From a virus, in the UHGV virus genome UHGV-0126656: 10,402 bases of DNA; one strand, given 5' to 3'. Shown here piece by piece: positions 1-10,402 of the stretch. Made by a program: the position numbers and the translations under genes. The notes beneath the pieces were generated by a model, which ran no database searches, had not been told where the DNA came from, and saw nothing but the letters and a program-made list of their open reading frames with translations. Positions within the stretch are counted from its first letter, which is position 1. Every line of letters starts with the position of its first letter.

Positions 1-148
1 TTTTGGCGGATCGGTTGTGCCGGTGACGGTGAAATCACTCGCATTTCCTTCCTGAATACGGTAGTTATCAGGCGTGGCGCGGTGTGGCGGGGCGGTGGCG
101 GGAATATATCCGGCTGTGTATCCGGTGAAAGTGAATGGCCTGTATAGC

Positions 149-170
149 AAAAACCCGTCGCGGGGACGGG
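149..170 (-). terminator. Rho-independent terminator downstream of the 222-aa gene
   Basis: On the minus strand, a GC hairpin (stem CCCGTC/GACGGG, 5-nt loop; plus 154..170) is followed by TTTTT (plus AAAAA 149..153), about 24 nt past the stop at 194. Part of conserved motif copy 1. Confidence 0.5.
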
Positions 171-193
171 CTTCGTTTGATGGCGGGTTTTCG

Positions 194-862
194 TTACCCG
201 TTCACATGAATATCCATCCCGGCGCGTCCGTGCTGCGTGATGGTTATCAGGCCATCTTCTTTGAGTTGTTTCAACAATGCCAGAAAAGTATTGCGGCCCG
301 GTGCACCAATAGGCCAGATCGCCTTAATCAGTCCGGCATGATTGACGCCATGTAGCGGCGCGTTTGCCTTCAGATAATCCAGTACAGTGTCAGCCTTAAA
401 GCGTACAGGCTTTTTAAACTCCTTATTCGTACCAGTTACGACCGTTTCATGTGGTTCTGTACCTTTCGTCTTGCCTGCGTCCGGTACGGCGCTTTCCGGT
501 ACTGTTTCAACTTCCTGCGCGGCTTTTGTACTGATTGCCATCAGACGTGCTTCCAGTTCCCGGATCTGTGCGTCCTTGTCTGCAATGATGCCTTTCAGTT
601 CGCTGTTAGCCGCTTCCAGTTCTTCTACGGCCTCGCTAACTTCCCCAGCGTACAGGAAGCCGATAACCCCACGACCGCAATTAAGCTCATTCACGACCTT
701 CACAAAGACCTCCCATTTTGGCGTCTTCTGGCGCTTGAATACGGCCTTTATTTCATCGCTGGCGACACCTAACACCCCAGCCATATTGCTATGGATGTGA
801 CCGCGTTTATCACGGTATTTGTCATCGGCCCGCTGTTGTAGCATTTTGATTAAATCGTTCAT
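194..862 (-). CDS. Hypothetical protein (222 aa), central coiled-coil, possible C-terminal winged-helix-like region
   Basis: The ORF track gives 194..973 from a GTG start, but that extension overlaps the upstream terminator at 974..995. The internal ATG at 860..862 (MNDLIKMLQQ...) has an AAGGGG Shine-Dalgarno 8 nt upstream and is preferred. Heptad-like acidic segment (EVSEAVEELEAANSELKGIIADKDAQIRELEARL). No family recognised. Confidence 0.55.
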   Translation of the reverse strand: MNDLIKMLQQRADDKYRDKRGHIHSNMAGVLGVASDEIKAVFKRQKTPKWEVFVKVVNELNCGRGVIGFLYAGEVSEAVEELEAANSELKGIIADKDAQIRELEARLMAISTKAAQEVETVPESAVPDAGKTKGTEPHETVVTGTNKEFKKPVRFKADTVLDYLKANAPLHGVNHAGLIKAIWPIGAPGRNTFLALLKQLKEDGLITITQHGRAGMDIHVNG

Positions 863-973
863 CCTTTGCCCCTTAATTAATCCAGAAACATTGTAATTAC
901 TCGCTATTGGTACGATAACAGGCGCGGCGGCTGGTGGATAAGTGTAATAGGTGGGAATGTTGACGCAGATCAC

Positions 974-995
974 AAAAACCCGGCGCTGGGCCGGG
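974..995 (-). terminator. Rho-independent terminator after the 62-aa/AlpA-like operon
   Basis: Minus strand: stem CCCGGC/GCCGGG (plus 979..995) followed by TTTTT (plus AAAAA 974..978), 19 nt downstream of the stop at 1014. Confidence 0.6.
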
Positions 996-1013
996 TCTTA
1001 GCAAGTTAGATGA

Positions 1014-1250
1014 TTATTGGTTATCGCTGTCAGAAAGTAGTCCAATTGATTTAAAGAATTTCATCACATCCTGATAGCGATACAAGAAACCTCCGTGCTT
1101 CAGTGCTGGCATTCCCTCAACCGGATCCGGAAAAGGAGTTCCAGCATCTTTCCACTTCCTGACCAGTTTGAAAAATGAGGACTTACTAAGCCCGCCTAAC
1201 ATTTTTTGCACTTGCTCACGATTAATAAGTATTGTTGCTGTCTTATCCAT
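1014..1250 (-). CDS. Small DNA-binding protein, AlpA/Vis (excisionase-like) family candidate (78 aa)
   Basis: Translation has the short HTH layout of phage AlpA/Vis regulators (LGGLSKSSFFKLVRK ... FPDPVEG ... LYRYQDVMKFF). Tightly coupled to the upstream 62-aa gene (19 nt gap). Assignment is by motif resemblance only. Confidence 0.55.
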   Translation of the reverse strand: MDKTATILINREQVQKMLGGLSKSSFFKLVRKWKDAGTPFPDPVEGMPALKHGGFLYRYQDVMKFFKSIGLLSDSDNQ

Positions 1251-1269
1251 TATTTAATCTCCCGTGTGT

Positions 1270-1458
1270 TTATTTTGCGTACATTAAGGTAAACGCTCTT
1301 TTGGCTTTGCTTAGTTCATATTCGCGTTTTTCCATGATTGCCAACAATTCTTGCGCAGTGGCTGGCACGCCCGCTCTTATCAGCGCAATCTTAGTATCCA
1401 TAGCGCACACTCTTTCACGCGCCATATCGAAGATAATTTCCGCTCTATTGTGTGTCAT
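1270..1458 (-). CDS. Hypothetical small protein (62 aa)
   Basis: ATG at 1458 is preceded by a strong Shine-Dalgarno (AAGGAGG, 5 nt spacer). First gene of a two-gene operon ending at the 974..995 terminator. Confidence 0.55.
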   Translation of the reverse strand: MTHNRAEIIFDMARERVCAMDTKIALIRAGVPATAQELLAIMEKREYELSKAKRAFTLMYAK

Positions 1459-1883
1459 AACATCCTCCTTTTAACATTCAATCAATGCACATAACGAACA
1501 TCATGACCATCAGTAAAATCACTTCCCAGCGTTTCATTCTGCACCCAATTTCAGTCCATTTACTGCTGTATTCCTTGTTTCTGGCTTCTTTATACCCAGG
1601 TGGGCGGCGGGAAAACGTGACATAGATCCCGGTTTCGTTAATCGGTACAATTACGTCTGATTTTTGCGAAAATGGATTTATTGCAGTTGTAGTGCCAGCG
1701 GGGATTGTGAGAAAGGCCCGGGTAGGTTGCTAACTGCTTGGGCCTTTGTTTGGCGCGTGTACGTGAAAAATAGAAATTTGGCAGGGTAGTTGTAGGGATT
1801 TTTCGCGTATGGGCGTTTAAGGCGGGAAGGTTAATTCTAACGCGCGATTATAATTAAGAATAATCAATAGCTTATATTAAAGA

Positions 1884-1917
1884 GTGATTGGTCTGTATAG
1901 CAAAACCCGGCGCGGGT
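1884..1917 (-). terminator. Conserved motif copy 2 with weak hairpin and U-run (possible terminator or element boundary)
   Basis: Plus GTGATTGGTCTGTATAGCAAAACCCGGCGCGGG matches 131..164 (GTGAATGGCCTGTATAGCAAAAACCCGTCGCGGG) with 2 mismatches and 1 indel. On the minus strand a short hairpin (5-bp stem, 3-nt loop) is followed by TTTT. Confidence 0.35.
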
Positions 1918-1927
1918 CCTGGTGGAG

Positions 1928-2023
1928 TTAACCAAAGAGCATCAGACAGATCAGCATTGTGATAAAAATTATGGCTTGCCCGATAGCAAATAGCATAAAT
2001 ACCAGGTATATAAGCCTTCTCAT
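1928..2023 (-). CDS. Possible small hydrophobic peptide (31 aa, MRRLIYLVFMLFAIGQAIIFITMLICLMLFG)
   Basis: Internal ATG of ORF 1928..2110 with a weak GGGGAAG Shine-Dalgarno-like sequence about 10 nt upstream. A single predicted transmembrane helix, sitting between the tape-measure stop and the motif-2 terminator. May be a translation artefact of T-rich sequence. Confidence 0.25.
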   Translation of the reverse strand: MRRLIYLVFMLFAIGQAIIFITMLICLMLFG

Positions 2024-2193
2024 TTGTTTTTCTTCCCCAAAAACACAGCAACACGCGAAACAGGTGAAAAACTGCCACGCCAACTCTAACGGCTGCAATA
2101 ATAAGAGCAAGCAAAAAACAATAAATTATGTTAAACACGGTGTGCGACCGTCTTTGAAGGTCCGCCAGTCTATCCCCCTGGCGTGGGATTTGG

Positions 2194-4398
2194 TTAACGC
2201 CGCCGTGGTTGTAACATGCCTCCAGGTCTTTGCGACTCGCGCTGCATCAGGCGCATTGCTGTGTTTTCTATAGTCTGTTGCAACGCTTTTGAGTCGTCTT
2301 CAGTCCAGCCGTTTGTCGCCTGGATGTTGTTTGTTACGTTCAGTGTGATGCCGCCACCACTGCCAACCAGATCGCGGCCCGGTGTAACTCGTCCACCCTC
2401 GCCGGGGATCATGTACTGTTTCCCGCCAGTAGAGGTAAATAACTCAGGGACACCGTGCTCACCAACCCTGTAAAGATTGCCACCGTTAACCGCGCCGCCG
2501 TTGTAGCGACCACCGCCAAACAAGCCAGTAATGCCAGCCATCAAGGCGCTGATAGCTGACATTGCGACCATCGGGGCCGTCCCCATTGTCGCGGTAGCTG
2601 TCGCCGCTGCTGCCGGGGCCATTGATGATGCGATTGATGCGCCTGTTGCCGCTGCTGTTGCCGCTTGTCCGCTCATTGCGCTGGCGCTGGCTGCCTCGCT
2701 TAAGATCATTTGTTTGACGTATTCAGCGCCCATCTCAGCGATACTTCCCACCACTTTTCCGAGAATGGTAGTCCCGATATTGGCGAAAGCGGTTTCCAGG
2801 TTCTGCGTACCATTAAGCAGGCCGACAACGGCATTTGTAGCGCCACCACTCAGGCCATCAGCCATGTCACCAATCAGGCCATTAATCCCACCTTGCGCCC
2901 GGAATTGTTCCCACTGCGAGGCAAGCAATTCTTCTGCGTGCTGTTGTTTAAGCGCGTTTAGCGTTTCCTCGTTAATCATCTGTTTGTTGAATAGCTCATC
3001 AGCCTGTTGCATTTCAAGGGCATGGCGTTGTTTGAGCGCATCAACGGGATTAAATTGCTCATTAAGCTGTTTTGCTTTTTCTTCCAGTTCGATTTGATGC
3101 TCACGCGCGGCGTTTGTTTCGTAAATCAGGTGCGCAAGGTTTTTCATCTCACTAACCTGTTTTGCCGTTGCGTTAGCGCCCATTTCCTGAACGGCGTCCC
3201 ACATTTCAGCCTCTTTGCTACCCTCAGCAAAGCCCTGGTTAAGTCGTTCCAGTTCTGCGCGTTTCCGTTTCAGCGCTTCTTCTGCCGGATCTTTCTGCGC
3301 GCGTTTCGGTTTATTGCCACCTCCACCGCCATTGTCTTTCAGCTTAATATCAGTGGTGGCCTGCTGTGTCGGTAGCGTTGACACAAAACCCGTAGATTGA
3401 TTGTCTGGCGCTGCGCCTAAGAAGTCGGTTTGTTTGGCTTGAGCGCGGAATAAATCAAGGCCCGGCACAAACGGCTCAAAGGCTGCGGCAAGTGTCCATA
3501 ACTTATCAGCCAATGACGCAGAATCAGATTTCAGCGTTTTAAACCAGCCGGATAGCTCGCGGCAATAATCAGCCAGCGTTTTAATACCGCGACCGACCAG
3601 TTCAGTAACATGCAGCGTCTGGTCGATGGTTTCCAGTAACAGGCTAAAATTTGTTGATAGCTCTGTCATTGCCTGTTCCGTGGTTGTCGGCAGCTTGTTA
3701 AATTCTTTTTCGATTTCGCCTGATCCTTTCAGGATTGCATTTACTACATCCTCAGCCGTCAGTTTGCCATCCAACATGCGGCGACGTAGCTCACCCATTG
3801 AGATCCCCATCTGACTTGCTACGCGCCGCCATAGCTCCGGCATACCCTCCAGGATGCTGTTAAATTCCTCAGCACGGACAATACCGCCGTTAATAGATTG
3901 CCCTAACTGTCGCAAGGCGTTTGCGGCTTCTTCGGATGAACTACCACCAATACGCCCGATCTGCTGTAGTGTCTCTGTCAACTGTAAGATCTGGCCCCCG
4001 GTAGCGTTTGCATCAGACAAAGCTGAAGTAAGGCTTTCCCATAACTTAGTAGTATCCTCAATCTTCATGCCAGTTCGCTTGCTGATCTCAAGAATGCCGC
4101 TAAAATTAGCCTTAGCTTCAACCAGACTACCGGATAGCCGGGATACACGGGCGCGTAGTAGTTTTACGTTGTCCGCGATTTCAATAAAGCGTTTAGCCGC
4201 CATCATTAGCAGGCCAACGTTAACCGCCGCCGCCAGTTTGCTGATTGTCGTATTCAGTTTGTTGATTGAGTTATCAGCGCGCTTTGCGCCGCGTTCAATG
4301 CGATCGAATGCGTCGTCAGCTTGTTTCCCTGCGGTTAATAGCTTCCCTGTGCGCGCATCAACCTCATAATAAATTCTACCTACGTTTGTGTTACTCAT
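2194..4398 (-). CDS. Phage tail tape-measure-like protein (734 aa)
   Basis: Long, mostly helical protein with an N-terminal region typical of tape-measure domains (GMPELWRRVASQMGISMGELRRRMLDGKLTAEDVVNAI), a Gly run (GGGGGNKPKR), a coiled-coil middle, a C-terminal Ala/Gly/Thr/Ser-rich hydrophobic stretch and a Gly-rich tail (LYRVGEHGVPELFTSTGGKQYMIPGEGG). Classification is by resemblance; no search was run. Confidence 0.75.
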   Translation of the reverse strand: MSNTNVGRIYYEVDARTGKLLTAGKQADDAFDRIERGAKRADNSINKLNTTISKLAAAVNVGLLMMAAKRFIEIADNVKLLRARVSRLSGSLVEAKANFSGILEISKRTGMKIEDTTKLWESLTSALSDANATGGQILQLTETLQQIGRIGGSSSEEAANALRQLGQSINGGIVRAEEFNSILEGMPELWRRVASQMGISMGELRRRMLDGKLTAEDVVNAILKGSGEIEKEFNKLPTTTEQAMTELSTNFSLLLETIDQTLHVTELVGRGIKTLADYCRELSGWFKTLKSDSASLADKLWTLAAAFEPFVPGLDLFRAQAKQTDFLGAAPDNQSTGFVSTLPTQQATTDIKLKDNGGGGGNKPKRAQKDPAEEALKRKRAELERLNQGFAEGSKEAEMWDAVQEMGANATAKQVSEMKNLAHLIYETNAAREHQIELEEKAKQLNEQFNPVDALKQRHALEMQQADELFNKQMINEETLNALKQQHAEELLASQWEQFRAQGGINGLIGDMADGLSGGATNAVVGLLNGTQNLETAFANIGTTILGKVVGSIAEMGAEYVKQMILSEAASASAMSGQAATAAATGASIASSMAPAAAATATATMGTAPMVAMSAISALMAGITGLFGGGRYNGGAVNGGNLYRVGEHGVPELFTSTGGKQYMIPGEGGRVTPGRDLVGSGGGITLNVTNNIQATNGWTEDDSKALQQTIENTAMRLMQRESQRPGGMLQPRRR

Positions 4399-4640
4399 GT
4401 CCTGTATATCCGCGTTGTGCGGATACCTCCGATTGTTCTTTACTCTAATAATTCCGCCATGAAACAGTTTATTGCCGCTTCAGTGACTTCGTGTTCAGGT
4501 TTGCTTCAACCAATCACAAAAAACATCGTTTAATAGAATCAATGGCTTATAAAGCTGTATCAGCTATGCTTCTTTGTCAAAGCCACTGAAAATCAAGTTT
4601 TCCCAATGAAATCAATGCTGATATACATCCATATCGTTTT

Positions 4641-4657
4641 TAACGTAATGTACGTTA
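4641..4657. promoter_or_regulatory. Perfect 7-3-7 palindrome TAACGTA-ATG-TACGTTA (candidate operator)
   Basis: Read directly in the 290 bp gap between the 76-aa gene and the tape-measure-like gene; shape fits a dimeric HTH regulator binding site. Confidence 0.35.
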
Positions 4658-4687
4658 TGCGCACTGCGGGAAACGTACTGGATTTAT

Positions 4688-4918
4688 TTACTGGTCGCCG
4701 TTCAGTTCATGCAGAGTCTGTTCTGGCAATGAATCCAGCCAGTTTTCTGCATCCTCCCTGTAACACTCCAGGATGCAACGGTTTGTGAAGTTGATGAAAG
4801 CGGTCAGTGATTCTGCTTCGTAGTTCCTGTGCGCTCTTCTGGCCTGCTTACGTAGTTGTTTCGCTTCTGCCCGCTGGCCTTCGAGTATCTCCAGCCTGTC
4901 TGCAATATCTTGCTTCAT
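4688..4918 (-). CDS. Hypothetical small protein (76 aa)
   Basis: ATG at 4918 with a GAGGAG Shine-Dalgarno 6 nt upstream; 38 nt from the stop of the upstream gene. Charged, helical; no family recognised. Confidence 0.55.
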   Translation of the reverse strand: MKQDIADRLEILEGQRAEAKQLRKQARRAHRNYEAESLTAFINFTNRCILECYREDAENWLDSLPEQTLHELNGDQ

Positions 4919-4956
4919 GTTCAGCTCCTCGCGCGCGCATAGTACTTGTCCGAAAA

Positions 4957-5331
4957 TTAATCGCCCGTCCCATCATTAATATCGATTCCCACGCTGTGCA
5001 ACTGGCTATGAATGTCTCTGCGAATGAGAATTAAACGCCTGATGAACTCCATTTCCTCCGCGATCTGGTTGCTCGGCCCCGATTTCATGTCGATGATTTT
5101 ATTGATAGTTCCAAGCGAATATTCAGCCCACAGACGAAGCGTTTGGCGCTTCATGGCCTGTTTGCTCAGTGGCGAATGTTTCAGGTCTAAGACATGTTCT
5201 GCGAGGGTCTTAGCGATGCCCTGCATGATGCGTAGTGCCAACATGATGATTTTCTCCGGACTTGTGCTAATATAGTTCCCGAACATTGTTCCGAGACTGC
5301 TTATCCTGTTTGTCTTGTCCGATTTGTTCAT
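4957..5331 (-). CDS. Hypothetical protein (124 aa)
   Basis: ORF in the operon on the same strand; ATG at 5331 with a weak Shine-Dalgarno, preceded by an intergenic hairpin at 5350..5369. No family recognised. Confidence 0.5.
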   Translation of the reverse strand: MNKSDKTNRISSLGTMFGNYISTSPEKIIMLALRIMQGIAKTLAEHVLDLKHSPLSKQAMKRQTLRLWAEYSLGTINKIIDMKSGPSNQIAEEMEFIRRLILIRRDIHSQLHSVGIDINDGTGD

Positions 5332-5382
5332 TGGTCACATTGTTAAGTCAGCCGGGGTAATTCCCGGCTTTCTTTTATCCGA

Positions 5383-5925
5383 TCAGTACCGAATCCCTAT
5401 CGCATTGAATACGCGTTTCCGTTGCTCAGCTTCAGGATCGGCGGCCATTTCTGGTTCTGGCTCCGGCATAGACGGGGCGGCATCAAAATGCTCAATTTCA
5501 CGACCGAAATACGAGTTCAGGACAATACCTGCCGAACTATCCACTCCATCAAAATAGCGACGCTGTTCCTCGGTGAGACAGCTACCCAGACGTTCCTCAA
5601 CCTGCGCCATAAACTCAGCATCCGGTGAGAAGTACTCATCCGGAGTCGGAGCACCGCTCTGTTTGTGCATCTCCATTTTCTCTGCGTTCGTTTTCAGCCC
5701 GGCAATGCGTTTCTCCAGTCCGGCGGCTTTAATAGCGTCAGCAACGATTTGTGGGATCTGCGGTTTAATTGTTTCGATAACTTCATTGCTGATTAATTTA
5801 AACTGGGCCATACGGATCGCTTTAATCTGCTTATTTAACAGTGCGCGTTCCCCTTCGTTGGCGGTTTTATCACGCTGTGCTACCAGTTCATCGCCTTTGT
5901 TTGTCAGTACATCAAATGCGTCCAT
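5383..5925 (-). CDS. Hypothetical acidic protein (180 aa)
   Basis: ATG at 5925 with a GGAGGAG Shine-Dalgarno and 8 nt spacer; starts 17 nt after the stop of the upstream gene. Acidic, Pro/Glu-rich C-terminal segment (MPEPEPEMAADPEAEQ). A tail assembly chaperone or scaffold-like role is speculation only. Confidence 0.6.
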   Translation of the reverse strand: MDAFDVLTNKGDELVAQRDKTANEGERALLNKQIKAIRMAQFKLISNEVIETIKPQIPQIVADAIKAAGLEKRIAGLKTNAEKMEMHKQSGAPTPDEYFSPDAEFMAQVEERLGSCLTEEQRRYFDGVDSSAGIVLNSYFGREIEHFDAAPSMPEPEPEMAADPEAEQRKRVFNAIGIRY

Positions 5926-5942
5926 TGTCTTTTCTCCTCCGA

Positions 5943-6269
5943 TTATTTAAAAGTGCTTATTGACACGCCGAAACGACGACTTAATTCAAAAAGGAGTCGC
6001 GCCTTTGCAGTGCCTTCCATGTCTTCCGGCATTTCAGACTGAAGTTTATCAGCTACTTCATCAACAAGTGGCCGAACCGTTTCCACGAACTTGTCCGCAA
6101 TATAATCAGCAGAACGCATCACTTTTTCCTGGAATTCCTCACGGCGTTCCTGGGCGGCTGATTTAGGGGCTGTCGTGCGCTGAAAATAACTGTCTAATGA
6201 ATGCATGGCATCTGCTCCTTTTACTTTGATTGATGTTATTTCTTTAATTGTGTTTGCTTTGATTTTCAT
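5943..6269 (-). CDS. Hypothetical small protein (108 aa; alternative 87-aa form starting at 6206)
   Basis: ORF directly downstream of alpA on the same strand. The internal ATG at 6204..6206 has the better Shine-Dalgarno (AAGGAG, 8 nt spacer), so the true start may be 6206. Confidence 0.55.
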   Translation of the reverse strand: MKIKANTIKEITSIKVKGADAMHSLDSYFQRTTAPKSAAQERREEFQEKVMRSADYIADKFVETVRPLVDEVADKLQSEMPEDMEGTAKARLLFELSRRFGVSISTFK

Positions 6270-6345
6270 GCTGCCTATTCCTTCAGAAATTGCGGTAGCT
6301 AGCTTTTTAAATCAATAGGTTATTTGATAATCTCAGTAGCTGTTT

Positions 6346-6537
6346 TCATTGGTGGCGAGCGCCTTTGTTTTTATAGAATTCCAAAATCTCAGATCGGATA
6401 AACTTAATTCGTGCACCGACCGGAGTAACCGGAACGGGCCAACCTTTAATCTTGTTAATCCAGCGGAATATAGTGCGTCGGGTAACGCCGAATAAAGCGG
6501 CTACCTCGTTCACCGTCATTAATTCGCTATCATTCAT
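6346..6537 (-). CDS. alpA: AlpA-family prophage regulatory protein / excisionase-like HTH (63 aa)
   Basis: Translation MTVNEVAALFGVTRRTIFRWI... is a typical AlpA/Xis-type helix-turn-helix. GAGGTGA Shine-Dalgarno 4 nt before the ATG. Sits where AlpA-like regulators are usually found in P4-integrase islands. Confidence 0.8.
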   Translation of the reverse strand: MNDSELMTVNEVAALFGVTRRTIFRWINKIKGWPVPVTPVGARIKFIRSEILEFYKNKGARHQ

Positions 6538-6556
6538 GTTCTCACCTCAAAAAGTA

Positions 6557-6590
6557 GCGGTGAGGAAAAATATGGGAAAACCCTCACCGC
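6557..6590 (-). promoter_or_regulatory. alpA leader stem-loop (9-bp stem) with U-run, overlapping anti-SD/SD logic
   Basis: Minus strand reads GCGGUGAGG-16 nt loop-CCUCACCGC-UACUUUUU, then the SD GAGGUGAG and AUG. The CCUCACC arm can pair with either the upstream arm or the alpA Shine-Dalgarno. Confidence 0.35.
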
Positions 6591-6729
6591 GCCCTGAATG
6601 AAATTAAAGACCAACATTACTGTTGATACTTAATATTATATTCCTCATGTCCCTGTTTCACATCTTTTACCATATAGGGAAAGGGGATATTCTGTAATGT
6701 TTACAAAACTTTTAATTAGCAAAAAATAA

Positions 6730-6758
6730 TTGCGCATCTCACGTAATACAGGGATAAT
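6730..6758 (+). promoter_or_regulatory. Candidate sigma70 promoter (TTGCGC-17 nt-GATAAT)
   Basis: -35-like TTGCGC (6730..6735) and -10 GATAAT (6753..6758) with 17 nt spacing, pointing toward the plus-strand terminator at 6825..6851. Confidence 0.3.
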
Positions 6759-6764
6759 ATTACT

Positions 6765-6851
6765 CAAGGGCTGGTAACCCTTACTCAAAATGTGATCTAT
6801 AACTACAACGATTGATTTCACTTCCCCGCTCTCTCCGGCGGGATTTTTTTT
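6765..6851 (+). ncRNA. Candidate small RNA (~85 nt), divergent from alpA
   Basis: Bounded by the candidate promoter and a strong intrinsic terminator. No ORF (ATG TGA only). Has a 5-prime stem-loop (AAGGG-CUGGUAA-CCCUU) and an AU-rich linker before the terminator. Confidence 0.3.
6825..6851 (+). terminator. Rho-independent terminator (plus strand)
   Basis: GC hairpin (CCCGC ... GCGGG, 6825..6842) followed by eight T (6844..6851). No plus-strand CDS lies upstream. Confidence 0.6.
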
Positions 6852-7971
6852 GCCTGCAATCACCACATCAAAACTAATTAAAATTAGATGCCGTTTAAAC
6901 GCAATATAACGCATTCTGACGGCCTTAATTTTTGGCAATGCATTTGCTCAGGTGTGATTAGATTGATTCGTCTGGCGTGGAATGGTGCGGCGGTAATATC
7001 AGATCTCAGCGTTCTGTGTGGCGATTCCTCAGCTCTGAGGAGTGGGCGTCCGTCATTCAGTCTCAGCACCTTGCTCAAACGAGATCGGCTGCGATGGCGT
7101 TGTAGGCCGCATTCTGTCGTTTAATGAGACGTGCCTGATTGGACAATCTGAAATCTGGTTGGTGAGACTATTCAGGCGAGACTGTTCAGCGGGGAAAGCG
7201 GCGCATGTCGATGAATCCATTCCTGGATTAATCGGCGTTGTTCCGGTGTCTGGTGAAAATTTAATGAAATCGCATCAATTATAATGCGTCTAAATCGCTC
7301 TGTGGCGACGTGAAGTTTTCAGGTAAGCAAGTGCGGTTATATGTGTTCATCGCGTTACAGGCACCATTCCGTTCGAATTTGGCACGGTCAGGATGGTTTG
7401 CGGTGGTCGGCGGCGGGGATAAACTTGCTTGAGTGGTCACCTCAGCCTGCTGTGCGTCGTGTGATGGTACTGTCTGCACCTGGCTATACGCTGCTTTGCT
7501 GCTGTTTCCTGTCTGGTCTGTATACGCGATAAAACCCATCGGCTTTACAGTGAGTGAGTTTTTTGCGCTTTGCTTTCCATTCGGTTTGCTTACTGCTGCT
7601 GTGTGTCTGTGCGGTAGCTCAGAAAGCTGTTGACGATAACCATCACTGCTAAGCCCGTCTTTTAAGCTGGCAATTGCTCGAAGCCTTCCGAAGGCCCACC
7701 AATAAGAAATCACCCTTTGAGATATACCGCGCTCCCCATGAACGAATGCCATGATGGTTTGTTGGTCTGCTGTTCAGGTTGTACGTGAGTGAATGGGCGT
7801 TTCCAGCTTGCTGGAAATGATTGCGCTAATCAGCATGGTTAATGCTCGCAACCAGCCGACCTATCAGGCGGCGAAATAATTCTTCTGTTTAACTCTAGGC
7901 GACTCTCTATGACCGACCGGGAGGCTAAAAAACTCCCGTCGCCTAGAATTCTTAATAGTAGAATTCTTACT

Positions 7972-8082
7972 CGGCAACTTTTGACCCACCCTAACGGCAA
8001 CTTTTGACCCACCAATAACGGCAACTTTTGACCCACCTGAAGGCATAAATTGACCCACCCTAACGGCAACTTTTTACCCACC
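7972..8082. repeat. Iteron array (about 5 direct repeats, 23-24 bp period), putative replication origin
   Basis: AACGGCAACTTTTGACCCACC repeats beginning 7972, 7993, 8017 and 8062, with a degenerate copy at 8041..8059. Flanked at 7944..7969 by two TAGAATTCTTA repeats and at 7918..7938 by a hairpin. Lies just downstream of the Rep-like gene and its terminator. Confidence 0.7.
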
Positions 8083-8102
8083 TGAATTCATGGAATTAAG
8101 GC

Positions 8103-8129
8103 AAAGAAAAGGCGGGAACATTGCCCGCC
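8103..8129 (-). terminator. Rho-independent terminator after the Rep-like gene
   Basis: Minus strand: hairpin GGCGGG/CCCGCC (plus 8111..8129) followed by TTTTCTTT (plus 8103..8110), immediately after the stop at 8138. Confidence 0.5.
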
Positions 8130-8137
8130 TGATTCCG

Positions 8138-8665
8138 TTATTTCATGTTGTACGGCTTGAATAATAACTGGTATTCGTTGCACTCCCTTTCTGCCGATCC
8201 TGGTATATAGCCTTCAGTACGCTCAACAAGTTTGAAGTGGTTGACCAGACGATCGAGGCATTTTTTAACCGTGTTTTTTGATAGCCTGGCTCGTTTGTCG
8301 ATTGTTCCCCTACCAACCCTGCACCATCCCAACGGTGAGTTTTTGCCAGTACCAGCGAAGTAACAAAGAGCACGTAGCACAGCCTCGTCGTTGACTGTAT
8401 GTTCTTTCTCCCATCTTTCGTACAGTTTGCGGGGCAATACTTCATCAAGTCGGTTCAATGTGTCCAGGTAGCGCAGGTTGCCACGCCAGGCTTGCTCCTG
8501 CTGTTTTGCCTCGTGATGATCTGTTTCCTCGTGATTATCTGGCGTGTGTTCTTCGTGTTTAGTCTCTTCGTTTTTGGGTGCTTTATTCCGTAACTCGTTA
8601 ATTTTATTTAAAAATTGACGAACATCATTGTTTGTTTCTTGTTCTACTGCTAGCATATCAGACAT
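8138..8665 (-). CDS. Putative iteron-binding replication initiator, winged-helix (phage O N-terminal-like), 175 aa
   Basis: The ORF track starts at 8779, but the ATG at 8663..8665 (MSDMLAVEQ...) has an AAGGAG Shine-Dalgarno 8 nt upstream and is preferred. C-terminal segment (AVLRALCYFAGTGKNSPLGWCRVGRGTIDKRARLSKNTVKKCLDRLVNHF) resembles winged-HTH replication initiator domains; acidic His/Glu-rich N-terminal region. Function inferred from fold-like motif plus the adjacent iterons. Confidence 0.5.
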   Translation of the reverse strand: MSDMLAVEQETNNDVRQFLNKINELRNKAPKNEETKHEEHTPDNHEETDHHEAKQQEQAWRGNLRYLDTLNRLDEVLPRKLYERWEKEHTVNDEAVLRALCYFAGTGKNSPLGWCRVGRGTIDKRARLSKNTVKKCLDRLVNHFKLVERTEGYIPGSAERECNEYQLLFKPYNMK

Positions 8666-8839
8666 GAGAAATTCTCCTTTAGCTTGTTTCTCATACCGCC
8701 CCCGGAATGTTGCAGCATGCCGGGGGCTTTTATTTGTGTTGATCCTATTTTCGAACTCTGGATCTTTCGTTGCAAACATGGATTTAAGTTCTTGATATTG
8801 AATAATTTATTCCACTTAATTGGAATAATGGAATAATTA

Positions 8840-8868
8840 GCGAAAAAGAAAAGCCGGACGAATCCGGC
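8840..8868 (-). terminator. Rho-independent terminator downstream of the integrase gene
   Basis: Minus strand: hairpin GCCGGA-UUCG-UCCGGC (plus 8853..8868) followed by TTTTCTTTTT (plus 8840..8852), about 100 nt past the int stop. Confidence 0.5.
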
Positions 8869-8969
8869 AAATTGAATACAGGTTTCTTATCAGGTGATAG
8901 TTAAACCACACAAAACAAATGCTTATACAAAATGCAAAATTGCGCTTTGCAAAAAAGCCGCTTAATTAT

Positions 8970-10178
8970 TCATTCCGGTTCTAGAGGATTGCCGTTACCT
9001 GCCAATATTGAATCAATAGCGTCGGCGTAATCCTGCATCATTGCTCGCCGTTGCTTCAGGTAGGCCGCCTGGTTATAAATCGCCCTGATTCCCTTTGGAA
9101 CATGGGCCAATTGGATTTCGACCCAATCAGGGTTATACCTGCCGGATTCGTTAAGCGCCGTGCTGAATGTTGTGCGCCAGCCGTGGCCTGTAACCGTCGA
9201 TTTGAATCCGATACGCTCCAGGGCTTTAAGGATGGCACTGGCTGAAAGTGGCTTATCCATGAATCGACCAGGGAACACAAAAGCACTGTATCCGCTGCGG
9301 GTAAACTGGTCCTGTAATAGCTCGACCGCCTGCCGGGATAGCGGGACCACATGCGGGCGGCGGGCCTTCATGACTTCAGCGGGTAGGGTGATGGTTGCCG
9401 ATTCCAGATCTACCCACTCCCAGCGCATTAAACGCAGTTCTGCGGTCCTTAGGGCGCTTAATATAAGCAAACGTATTGCCGTCTGAATCTGAACGCTCCC
9501 GGCTCTCTCAAGGGCTTTGTAGAAGGCCGGGATTTCACTAATTTGCAGCCATGCGTTATGACCTGGGCGTCTGGCTTTCAATGCCGTGTCCAGATCTGCA
9601 ACCGGATTTCTGCTAACCAGTTCGGTGATAACGGCAAATTTGAAGATCTCCCCGATACGCTGGCGTAATTTCCTGGCCTGTTCCGGTGCGGTGCGCTCTT
9701 TCTTCTGAAGCAATGCCAGTACGTCACGGGCGGTTATATCAACGATTGAACGTTTTCCCAGCACGGTGTAAACATCTTTCTCTAGTGCCGATCTGACCTG
9801 CTTTGTATAGCTCTCACTCCAACCGCTCACTCTGGTAGCAAACCAGTCTTCCGCTACCGTCTTAAAACTTGCCGCCATGTTGAGCGCATCAATGGCTTTC
9901 TCCTTGCGCGCTTCTTCCATTGGGTCAATTCCCTGGGCGATGAGTAAACGGCTCTCTGTGGCGCGTTTACGTGCTTCCTTCAAGGTAATCAGCGGATATA
10001 CCCCAATAGCCTGTAACCGCTCTTTCTTGTCTATCCAGTACCGGAATCGCCAGTATTTGCTGCCATTGGGATGCACCAGCAAGAACAGGCCAGGTGTCTG
10101 TGAATCGGTGAGTTTGTAGGGCTTGTCCTTCGGCTGGGCGGCCTCTATGCCCTTTGCTGTCAGTGGTGTCTTGCTCAA
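8970..10178 (-). CDS. int: Tyrosine recombinase, P4-type phage integrase (402 aa)
   Basis: N-terminal arm-binding signature (PYKLTDSQTPGLFLLVHPNGSKYWRFRYW) and C-terminal catalytic region (HGWRTTFSTALNESG ... VEIQLAHVPKGIRAIYNQAAYLKQRRAMMQDYAD) characteristic of P4-family integrases. Start codon is TTG at 10176..10178 with a GAGGT Shine-Dalgarno 8 nt upstream. Confidence 0.9.
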   Translation of the reverse strand: MSKTPLTAKGIEAAQPKDKPYKLTDSQTPGLFLLVHPNGSKYWRFRYWIDKKERLQAIGVYPLITLKEARKRATESRLLIAQGIDPMEEARKEKAIDALNMAASFKTVAEDWFATRVSGWSESYTKQVRSALEKDVYTVLGKRSIVDITARDVLALLQKKERTAPEQARKLRQRIGEIFKFAVITELVSRNPVADLDTALKARRPGHNAWLQISEIPAFYKALERAGSVQIQTAIRLLILSALRTAELRLMRWEWVDLESATITLPAEVMKARRPHVVPLSRQAVELLQDQFTRSGYSAFVFPGRFMDKPLSASAILKALERIGFKSTVTGHGWRTTFSTALNESGRYNPDWVEIQLAHVPKGIRAIYNQAAYLKQRRAMMQDYADAIDSILAGNGNPLEPE

Positions 10179-10366
10179 AACCGGATACCTCGATCTAACG
10201 ACTCGATAACCCCGCTCATGTATCCGGCGCGTTCGGTTGCGTTCGGCAGGATAAGTAACGGGCGTATTAAGGGGAACACCTTACAGCACAAGGGCTAACG
10301 ATGAAATAGAATTGTTCGAATGCTGGAAGAAATGTTACTCATCACTTCTTCCTGAGGGAACGACTT

Positions 10367-10402
10367 ATGAAACTAAAGACCACATTGTTCGGCAATGTAT
10401 AT
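10367..10402 (+). CDS. Partial CDS, 5-prime end only (MKLKTTLFGNVY...), unknown product
   Basis: ATG at 10367 preceded by a GAGGGAA Shine-Dalgarno with 6 nt spacer; ORF runs off the window. Divergent from int. Confidence 0.35.
   Translation, partial: MKLKTTLFGNVY

Follow-up and report, generated by a model that had tools for sequence, protein, structure and literature searches.

The viral genome UHGV-0126656, a stretch of 10,402 nt that is referred to here as the window, carries near its left end two copies of a motif of about 33 bp, which stand in direct orientation on either side of a 1.75-kb segment, and the locus thereby raises the question of what kind of element such a repeat represents. 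A first-pass annotation, made from the sequence alone, suggested att-like direct repeats of an element that relies on the neighboring integrase, the junction of two tandemly integrated islands, or a conserved terminator or processing module. The analysis described here shows that the motif, termed M in the following, is not the attachment (att) site of the island integrase. On balance, we favor the reading that M is a duplicated terminator and module-boundary sequence in a mosaic island of the CPZ-55 family, where it would act as a substrate for recombination.

The window comprises the 3' end of eutA, an island of 10.3 kb that belongs to the CPZ-55 family and the start of eutB (at 10367), and all island genes are located on the minus strand. 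The chromosomal eutA end (1-55, plus strand; stop codon TGA at 53-55 according to the RefSeq annotation of the 99%-identical locus L001) is matched in 5404 of 5426 E. coli genomes, and in K-12 the position between eutA and eutB is occupied by the cryptic prophage CPZ-55. At the same locus, strain PCP06101 shows about 99% identity over window positions 1-2520 and patchier similarity deeper in, and its annotation gives the order eutA, hypothetical genes, intZ, eutB. Joining window positions 1-55 to 10356-10402 yields a continuous sequence that is present with 100% identity in 4962 of the 5426 complete E. coli genomes and represents the empty site. Therefore, the island extends from 56 to 10355. 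Its boundaries are marked by an 8-bp direct repeat, CTTCCTGA, which is found at 48-55 as the attL core (plus strand, at the eutA stop codon) and at 10348-10355 as the attR core. The same duplication, written TCAGGAAG, has been published for CPZ-55 (PMC6379469), and an IntZ-type island at a secondary site in yghO (L021) exhibits an identical core. The int-distal att arm (56-130, plus strand) contains the sequence TRTATCCGG at 105-113 and 117-125, and the int-proximal arm, which together with the attR core spans 10179-10355 (plus strand), contains TGTATCCGG at 10219-10227. In total, TRTATCCGG occurs three times in the window (105, 117 and 10219; 0.1 expected), exclusively in the att arms, and can be considered a candidate arm-type integrase-binding site. 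All 15 eutA-site loci sampled share a conserved int-distal arm, and that of L001 is near-identical to the arm of the window.

M does not coincide with any of these elements. Its first copy is situated 75 bp inside the island, and M is absent both from the int-proximal end (10179-10402) and from the empty site, in which CTTCCTGA is present. Since the IntZ core is CTTCCTGA at 48-55 and 10348-10355, as seen in the empty site, M is not the IntZ attachment site, and the proposal of att-like repeats serving the neighboring integrase is not supported; as a candidate for the IntZ core, M was ruled out by the empty-site test together with the published CPZ-55 duplication. A third CTTCCTGA 8-mer, again in direct orientation, is located at 1155-1162 inside the gene for a 78-aa protein and is probably due to chance (about 0.16-0.3 occurrences expected).

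The repeat itself is well defined. The two copies that had been noticed at 131-164 and 1884-1916 were confirmed by local alignment of 130-164 with 1883-1916, which yields identity at 31 of 34 positions with a single gap of 1 nt. When read on the minus strand, the two copies consist of a hairpin followed by four to five U residues and GCTATACAGRCCAWTCAC. Copy 1 (M1, 131-170, minus strand) is composed of an 18-nt tail (131-148), an A/U-run (149-153) and a hairpin (154-170), and ends the last gene of the island. Copy 2 (M2, 1884-1916, minus strand) is composed of an 18-nt tail (1884-1901), an A/U-run and a truncated hairpin, and ends a unit formed by a small-peptide gene and the tape-measure gene. 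The sequence GGYCTGTATA occurs at three sites (137, 1890 and 7515) where 0.01 would be expected, in agreement with the earlier statement that this 10-mer exceeds chance. The third site is part of a partial copy, GGTCTGTATAcgcgatAAAACCC (7515-7537, plus strand), in which the exact 10-mer is accompanied by AAAACCC. As the first-pass annotation had indicated, this fragment is related to M, and it is situated in a stretch that is conserved in the loci L003 and L006 with broken reading frames and is not protein-coding. A 157-aa open reading frame (ORF; 7279-7752) was considered as a gene that would hold this third copy and was rejected: substitutions are distributed 12/16/17 over the three codon positions, L003 and L006 carry broken frames, and because of this lack of codon-position bias and the broken frames the ORF is probably not a gene. 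More generally, window positions 6870-7752 are 77-88% conserved in islands inserted at ychJ, without codon-position bias and with broken frames. A further fragment reported at the start of the tape-measure gene (4399) does exist, but it carries one mismatch, falls on the ribosome-binding site and start codon of this gene and is probably a chance occurrence.

Could M simply reflect the likeness of two ordinary terminators, or a generic repeat of the repetitive extragenic palindromic (REP) type? The hairpin half of M (AAAACCCGGCGC..GGG) is indeed a common terminator type, and it resembles both annotated terminators of mEp phages and the internal terminator of the island at 973-995. However, the 18 nt outside the hairpin, which are contiguous with it, are identical at 16 of 18 positions between M1 and M2, and the degenerate 22-nt pattern GTGAWTGGYCTGTATAGCAAAA has exactly two matches in the window and not a single sequence with two matches among 200 shuffles, in all of which it was absent. 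Moreover, a 48-nt query around copy 2 was found in 112 of the 5426 genomes, at one or two places each and never on plasmids, and a query around copy 1 was found in 77 genomes. At every locus examined, the motif is located inside an island of the CPZ-55-type family, and outside this family no match to the 18-nt tail was obtained. M is consequently specific to the island family and is neither a REP-like nor a BIME (bacterial interspersed mosaic element)-like dispersed repeat. Both the motif statistics and the restricted distribution refute a chance or REP-like origin, which we regard as negligibly probable. A generic REP-like element lacking strain-to-strain variation, the outcome that the first-pass annotation had itself set against its proposal, is thus not what was found, as no genome carries more than two copies and strains do differ at M. 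The exact motif pattern yielded no matches in the GTDB species representatives and in IMG/VR, and relatives of the tape-measure protein among the GTDB representatives were limited to one remote match in Brenneria; in view of this outcome, the family was studied within E. coli only.

Folding bore out the description of both copies as a minus-strand hairpin with a U-run and a conserved sequence. The 66-nt test segment of M1 folds with -17.2 kcal/mol and forms a 10-bp stem that is followed by UUUUU; the 66-nt test segment of M2 folds with -16.2 kcal/mol (z -2.3) and forms a 9-bp stem with 4-5 GC pairs that includes UUUU. Positions 154-170 of M1 were listed as terminator-like by a terminator scan and were also scored on the plus strand. 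The M1 hairpin begins 23 nt past the stop codon of a gene for a 222-aa protein (stop codon 194-196; hairpin end 170), and the M2 hairpin (approximately 1902-1922) about 5-11 nt past the stop codon of the peptide gene (1928-1930). Across 10 alleles from other strains, the six-pair stem of M1 is represented by CCCGTC/GACGGG, CCCGGC/GCCGGG and CCCAGC/GCTGGG. In this alignment 96.7% of cells are paired, as compared with 25-56% when the partner strand is slid, and two of the six pairs are compensatory, with five compensatory cells, a value that is reached in none of 500 shuffles. Because M2 is nearly invariant, it provides no information on covariation. M therefore displays the features by which intrinsic terminators are recognized, i.e., a GC stem-loop with a U-run, a co-oriented stop codon just upstream and, for M1 only, compensatory changes, and it would be expected to terminate transcription in vivo. 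Of the initial proposals, that of a conserved terminator module is the one supported by the hairpins and U-runs after stop codons, the covariation and the island-restricted distribution. A similar hairpin with no 18-nt tail follows the gene for the 78-aa protein (973-995, minus strand; 53-nt segment, -18.7 kcal/mol) and was detected by the terminator scan as an internal terminator. A sigma-70 promoter overlapping copy 2 (TTGCTA, 18 nt, TAATAT) was discarded, as it shows 8/12 matches, falls below the scan threshold and is absent from copy 1. An Rfam search retrieved nothing near the motif and two sub-threshold matches only.

The position of M relative to the island end is fixed. In 12 other eutA-site loci, the 18-nt tail starts 75-76 nt past the eutA stop codon, directly after the arm; this count covers the eutA-site loci with an uninterrupted motif and includes K-12, in which the tail has diverged. 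In L002 and L016, the first 12 nt of the tail occupy the same position and are followed by an insertion. The hairpin at the M1 position is kept, in truncated form in the peptide-gene version, after genes of the 222-aa type, yffS, a 552-nt gene, a 570-nt gene and the peptide gene. As its position is fixed and its hairpin is maintained whatever gene precedes it, M can be considered a constant end-piece of the transcribed region of the island.

Sequences adjoining M vary among strains in an ordered manner. In one architecture, (a), the tape-measure gene is followed toward the island end by a conserved element designated C, the peptide gene, M2, another C element, a non-coding region (NCR), a three-gene module, M1 and the arm; this arrangement is found in the window, PCP06101, 13TMH22, PI6 and ES5. 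Architecture (b), present in 14EC029 and about four other strains, consists of the tape-measure gene, a C element, the peptide gene, a single M and the arm, with nothing further. In architecture (c), exhibited by USMARC-49610, NCTC9967, Ceylon31, PEC145 and FDAARGOS_1249, the tape-measure gene is followed by hairpins, a C element, the NCR, the module, M and the arm, and the peptide gene and M2 are missing. The module is replaced by a single XRE-type gene in EM20-18-50, and K-12 and K99B lack the tape-measure gene and keep the NCR, module, M and arm. The proposed comparison of strains for a segment present or absent exactly between the motifs gave a positive answer. Read from eutA, 14EC029 (L005) carries 75 nt, a single M, the peptide gene and the tape-measure gene. 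Apart from 2272 bp that are located between the two M copies of 13TMH22 (L007), these two strains are colinear, the alignments on both sides overlap by exactly the 33 nt of M, and L005 likewise differs from the window at M. Overall, four different contexts are found to the left of M and at least five different genes to its right. In 13TMH22 and PI6, genes of the yffQ/R/S type are bracketed by two M copies, and four islands (L010, L011, L013 and L018) carry an additional terminal gene with M on one side and an M-like terminator on the other. The peptide gene and M2 occur together as a unit in 67 genomes, in 20 of which the NCR abuts M2; in the remainder the alignment ends exactly at window position 1884, or at 1895 where a 345-bp insertion splits M. 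Two alleles of the tail, GTGAATGGCC and GTGATTGGTC, are combined with differing hairpin alleles, as would be expected if crossovers occurred inside M. As an additional observation, 33 genomes that represent several architectures carry an AT/purine-rich insertion of 345-390 bp by which the motif is interrupted after GGTCTG (e.g., L016 3164-3508, L002 6143-6530 and L018 2686-3068), and partial relatives of this insertion (87% over approximately 190 nt) are present on six plasmids, including that of E2348/69.

Like attL and attR of tyrosine-integrase elements such as CPZ-55/IntZ, the copies of M form direct repeats around a strain-variable segment. They differ from these sites in that the true IntZ core is another 8-mer at the island ends and that no recombinase is tied to M. 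Presence or absence of a segment exactly at the repeats would be expected of att sites and is seen at M, yet homologous recombination between direct repeats predicts it just as well.

The C element that takes part in these arrangements (AATCAATAGCTTAT..., 1862-1883, minus strand) abuts copy 2. Related elements are located at 2117-2137 (three mismatches to a 14-nt core), 4537-4550 and 6310-6323, each upstream of a minus-strand operon, and the consensus is AATCAATRGNTTAT (ATAAnCyATTGATT on the minus strand). The C element may represent a shared promoter or operator element. A similar string is found at the int 3' end (9011), and PEC145 carries three C elements in a row after the tape-measure gene.

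In the favored model, M would be the end-piece of a transcribed region on the minus strand, made up of a Rho-independent terminator and a conserved stretch of 18 nt. The 3' region of the island would be organized in transcription units, each with a C element at its start and an M-type terminator at its end, and two direct copies of M would be found because the window carries two such units in series. M1 would end the gene of the YffS-family regulator, 75 bp from the attL core, and probably insulates the island from eutA, as well as from int in the excised circle; on the plus strand, it may also block read-through from the eut operon. M2 would end the unit of tape-measure gene and 31-aa peptide gene. 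Recombination within or at M would then generate one-copy strains without the module, swapped modules between two copies and hybrid M alleles. Specifically, architecture (a) could be converted into (b) by a crossover between two M copies and into (c) by a crossover between two C elements. The exchanges would presumably proceed via RecA or a phage recombinase, after a first event that duplicated M.

Several points weigh against this model. The terminator role is a prediction from sequence and folding, and the hairpin of M2 is short, with a GC stem of 4-5 bp plus weak pairs, so that the strength of M2 as a terminator is uncertain. Simple homologous recombination also leaves the first origin of the junction between C element and copy 2 (1883|1884) unaccounted for. 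In addition, 14EC029 did not arise recently by deletion from any of the sampled two-copy islands: immediately before M it carries another arm allele, and on the right flank its identity to L007 amounts to only 95%. Finally, the left edge of the 18 nt is constant within 1-2 nt in four unrelated contexts and thus looks more precise than random breakpoints. Two of these contexts are the att arm and the C element. The third is a 40-nt remnant of an int 3' end, which is located left of M in the ychJ-site islands B4103-1 and 14EC001, and the fourth is an AT-rich stretch in RM13745. In the sampled ychJ-site relatives (L003, L006 and L020), which exhibit a different integrase and a rearranged gene order, the 40-nt remnant of an IntZ-like int 3' end is fused to the motif in two of three cases (L003 and L006).

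The origin of copy 2 could instead be historical. Two islands might once have been integrated in tandem at eutA/eutB, the left one ending in NCR, regulatory module, M and arm and the right one in arm, M, peptide gene and tape-measure gene; a subsequent deletion would have removed the body of the left island, its integrase, the internal attP and the arm of the right island, whose left end would survive as a fossil in the form of copy 2. Both end types exist separately, as arm-M-peptide-tape-measure in 14EC029 and about four others and as NCR-module-M-arm without copy 2 in L009-L014 and K-12, and the window corresponds to their concatenation. Copy 2 includes the same 18 nt that abut the att arm in every eutA-site island, and the direct fusion of the 40-nt int remnant to M at ychJ looks like a deletion scar. 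The tandem junction, which was already among the initial proposals, is therefore a serious rival where the history of copy 2 is concerned, but neither a core (CTTCCTGA) nor an arm (TRTATCCGG) remnant is found beside copy 2 in the window. Furthermore, the endpoints of the deletion would need to fall precisely on the boundary of arm and M and precisely behind the C element, and no tandem array was seen among the sampled loci, although no systematic search was made. The two-copy architecture is also seen with at least two different modules, so that later exchange is needed in any case. Taken together, we consider such a tandem ancestry possible but rather doubtful.

The precision of the edge could also point to M, or its 18-nt tail, as a site of site-specific recombination, with cassettes bounded by C and M being moved by IntZ, using M as a secondary site, or by another enzyme; this reading corresponds to the hitchhiking element of the first-pass annotation. 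The recurrence of breakpoints at the same nucleotide in four contexts would agree with this, as would the 345-bp insertion by which the 18 nt are interrupted behind GGTCTG in 33 genomes and the finding that no fewer than three different modules are bracketed by copies of M or M-like sequences; a circle of C, cargo and M that recombines at M or C would yield the architecture of the window. On the other hand, the module contains no recombinase gene, M and the IntZ core are dissimilar, and by inspection M is neither dif-like nor equipped with attC features. Integron cassettes were rejected as no IntI is present, the sole integrase being of the P4 type with an arm-binding domain, and the motif lacks GTTRRRY by inspection. 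A XerCD dif-like site was rejected as well, since a comparison by eye with the E. coli dif sequence revealed TGTATA only, and the flanking 11-mers match at about 3/11 and 0-2/11 positions. No genome carries more than two copies, arrays of several cassettes are not seen beyond the succession of M, M-like terminator and M2, and the modules, instead of being unrelated cargo, represent alleles of a single set of regulatory genes. A dedicated site-specific mechanism is unlikely and is the least likely of the readings. The same small probability is assigned to its most far-reaching version, in which the tail would be a recombination or protein-recognition site that defines cassette-like units of C, cargo and M shuffled by a mechanism other than RecA, and the host of these units would be an unrecognized satellite-like E. 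coli family that encodes its own tape measure and includes CPZ-55 in degraded form.

The segment between the copies has the gene content that was initially described, with ORFs for proteins of 222, 78 and 62 aa at 194-862, 1014-1250 and 1270-1458 and no integrase, and protein family searches detected no recombinase gene encoded in 165-1883. The 222-aa protein (minus strand) is a variable allele of the YffS family with an N-terminal helix-turn-helix (HTH) and a coiled coil, and its positional homologues elsewhere match HTH_3. The 78-aa protein (minus strand) had been called AlpA/Vis-like. A role as a small DNA-binding protein is indicated by a weak match to PHROG 4745 (E 1.9e-5) and by a DNA homologue beside int in phage mEp013, but no Pfam match was obtained. 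The 62-aa protein (minus strand) is conserved together with the 78-aa gene. These two genes and a variable HTH/coiled-coil protein of the YffS family form the usual terminal gene set of the island family, and the module is not free-standing. A defense cassette was likewise dismissed: none of the PADLOC models passes 1e-4, no match was found for the window proteins, and weak RmrA-like scores were obtained for two alleles only.

The NCR (1459-1861) is conserved at 1690-1815 in CPZ-55 of K-12 and in other islands and contains a stem-loop at 1715-1744. BLAST matches were obtained in K-12, L007 and L009-L014, and none in 50,697 phage records. Its conserved part includes GGGCGGCGGG at 1602-1611, which is also kept in L003. 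A function as the cos site of a helper phage was discarded, as there is no phage match and the resemblance of GGGCGGCGGG to the lambda/P2 cos sequences is only loose. The NCR of some islands holds extra, att-arm-like sites of the GTATCCGG type (L002 6575-6625; L013 5975-6005, between window-equivalent positions 1751 and 1752), and the NCR of the window retains just a degenerate GGCGCGTGTACGTGAAA at 1751-1768 that resembles the arm sequence 113-130.

On the other side of M2, the 31-aa hydrophobic peptide (MRRLIYLVFMLFAIGQAIIFITMLICLMLFG; 1928-2023, minus strand) was identified by translation, and its gene, which is presumably expressed, is intact in L006, where longer overlapping ORFs carry indel breaks. 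An 88-aa ORF that reads through copy 2 was rejected, as its C-terminus varies with the sequence beyond M and frame-breaking indels are present in L006. The tape-measure gene (734 aa; 2194-4398, minus strand; PF20155, E 1e-53; TIGR02675, E 1.5e-19) is directly followed, at 2117-2183 on the minus strand, by a stem-loop CGCCAG..CTGGCG (2163-2183), a small hairpin (2136-2152) and the C-related element at 2117-2137. The same stem-loop is found directly 3' of the yffP stop codon in L004 (K-12), L013 and L002, which suggests a second shared 3' boundary sequence, with the tape-measure gene as an optional module inserted after yffP. Between the tape-measure stop codon and the NCR, L009 (4800-4860), L011 (5640-5720) and L012 (4940-5170) carry variable tandem arrays of small hairpins such as GTTCTGAATCGGAAC, GCCCTGAATCGGGGC and GTCGTGAAACGCGAC, each of which is about 20 nt long and followed by TTT. 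Further upstream, a four-gene operon is located on the minus strand between the tape-measure gene and an HTH_17/AlpA-type gene (6346-6537, minus strand). A YffL homologue (8138-8779, minus strand) shows weak PHROG matches to DnaD-like loader and replication-initiator families, and just downstream of it five 23-bp direct repeats with a spacing of 22-24 bp (7958-8082; ..AACGGCAACTTTTGACCCACC) probably constitute an iteron origin. The tyrosine integrase IntZ (8970-10178, minus strand; PF13356, PF22022 and PF00589) comprises arm-binding, central and catalytic domains, and intZ is the annotated name in L001 and K-12.

How does M compare with known systems? With intrinsic terminators near attachment sites, M shares the GC hairpin and U-run after a stop codon, the compensatory stem and the position as last unit before the attachment site, and M1 is predicted to be bidirectional. 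It differs by the conserved 18-nt tail 3' of the U-run and by the near-identical copy 1.75 kb away; a sequence 3' of the U-run is not needed for termination as usually understood. In the modular theory of mosaic temperate phages, Susskind and Botstein reportedly assigned to short conserved intergenic junction sequences the role of serving homologous exchange, and "boundary sequences" have been described for lambdoid phages such as HK620. M is likewise short and conserved, flanks modules that are dissimilar or absent and is associated with recombinant junctions and hybrid alleles; being shared at junctions of non-homologous modules at which recombinants are joined, it has the properties of such a linker. 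Unlike these sequences, it is a terminator and a direct duplicate within one element, so that it can also delete a module, and its host is an island of 10 kb instead of a full phage. A further parallel is offered by phage satellites and P2-like prophages, which carry hotspots of variable cargo at their ends (Rousset et al., 2022, as cited in PMC11364771), since a hypervariable gene set is found here, too, at a fixed site near the att end of a small integrase-bearing island. As a difference, the cargo here consists of HTH/coiled-coil regulators and small DNA-binding proteins, and the boundaries are formed by a repeated terminator instead of conserved genes. M is thus ordinary in kind, a terminator and boundary sequence of a familiar type.

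The context of the island may matter more than the repeat itself. Among the genes of the island (56-10355) are those for an integrase, a genuine tape measure, an HTH protein of the AlpA type and a replication-initiator-like protein, the last of these accompanied by iterons, and there is no capsid, portal or large terminase gene; its relatives L003, L011, L013, L016 and L018 carry "terminase small subunit-like" (yffO-like) or HNH genes. Judged from this gene content, the island has the appearance of a phage satellite that encodes a tape measure of its own, and CPZ-55 of K-12 is a relative in which the tape measure is missing. Tape measure proteins are almost unknown in satellites (preprint, PMC12822802), and no paper describing the CPZ-55-type family of E. 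coli as a satellite was found in the literature search. For this family, what appeared to be an att-like repeat is resolved into a defined anatomy of att core, arms with candidate integrase sites, constant end-terminator and variable module. The 33-bp repeat, at which the regulatory module can be lost or swapped, accounts for strain differences of 1.75-2.3 kb at the locus, and it illustrates how mosaicism in small integrative elements is shaped by short homologies that are linked to terminators.

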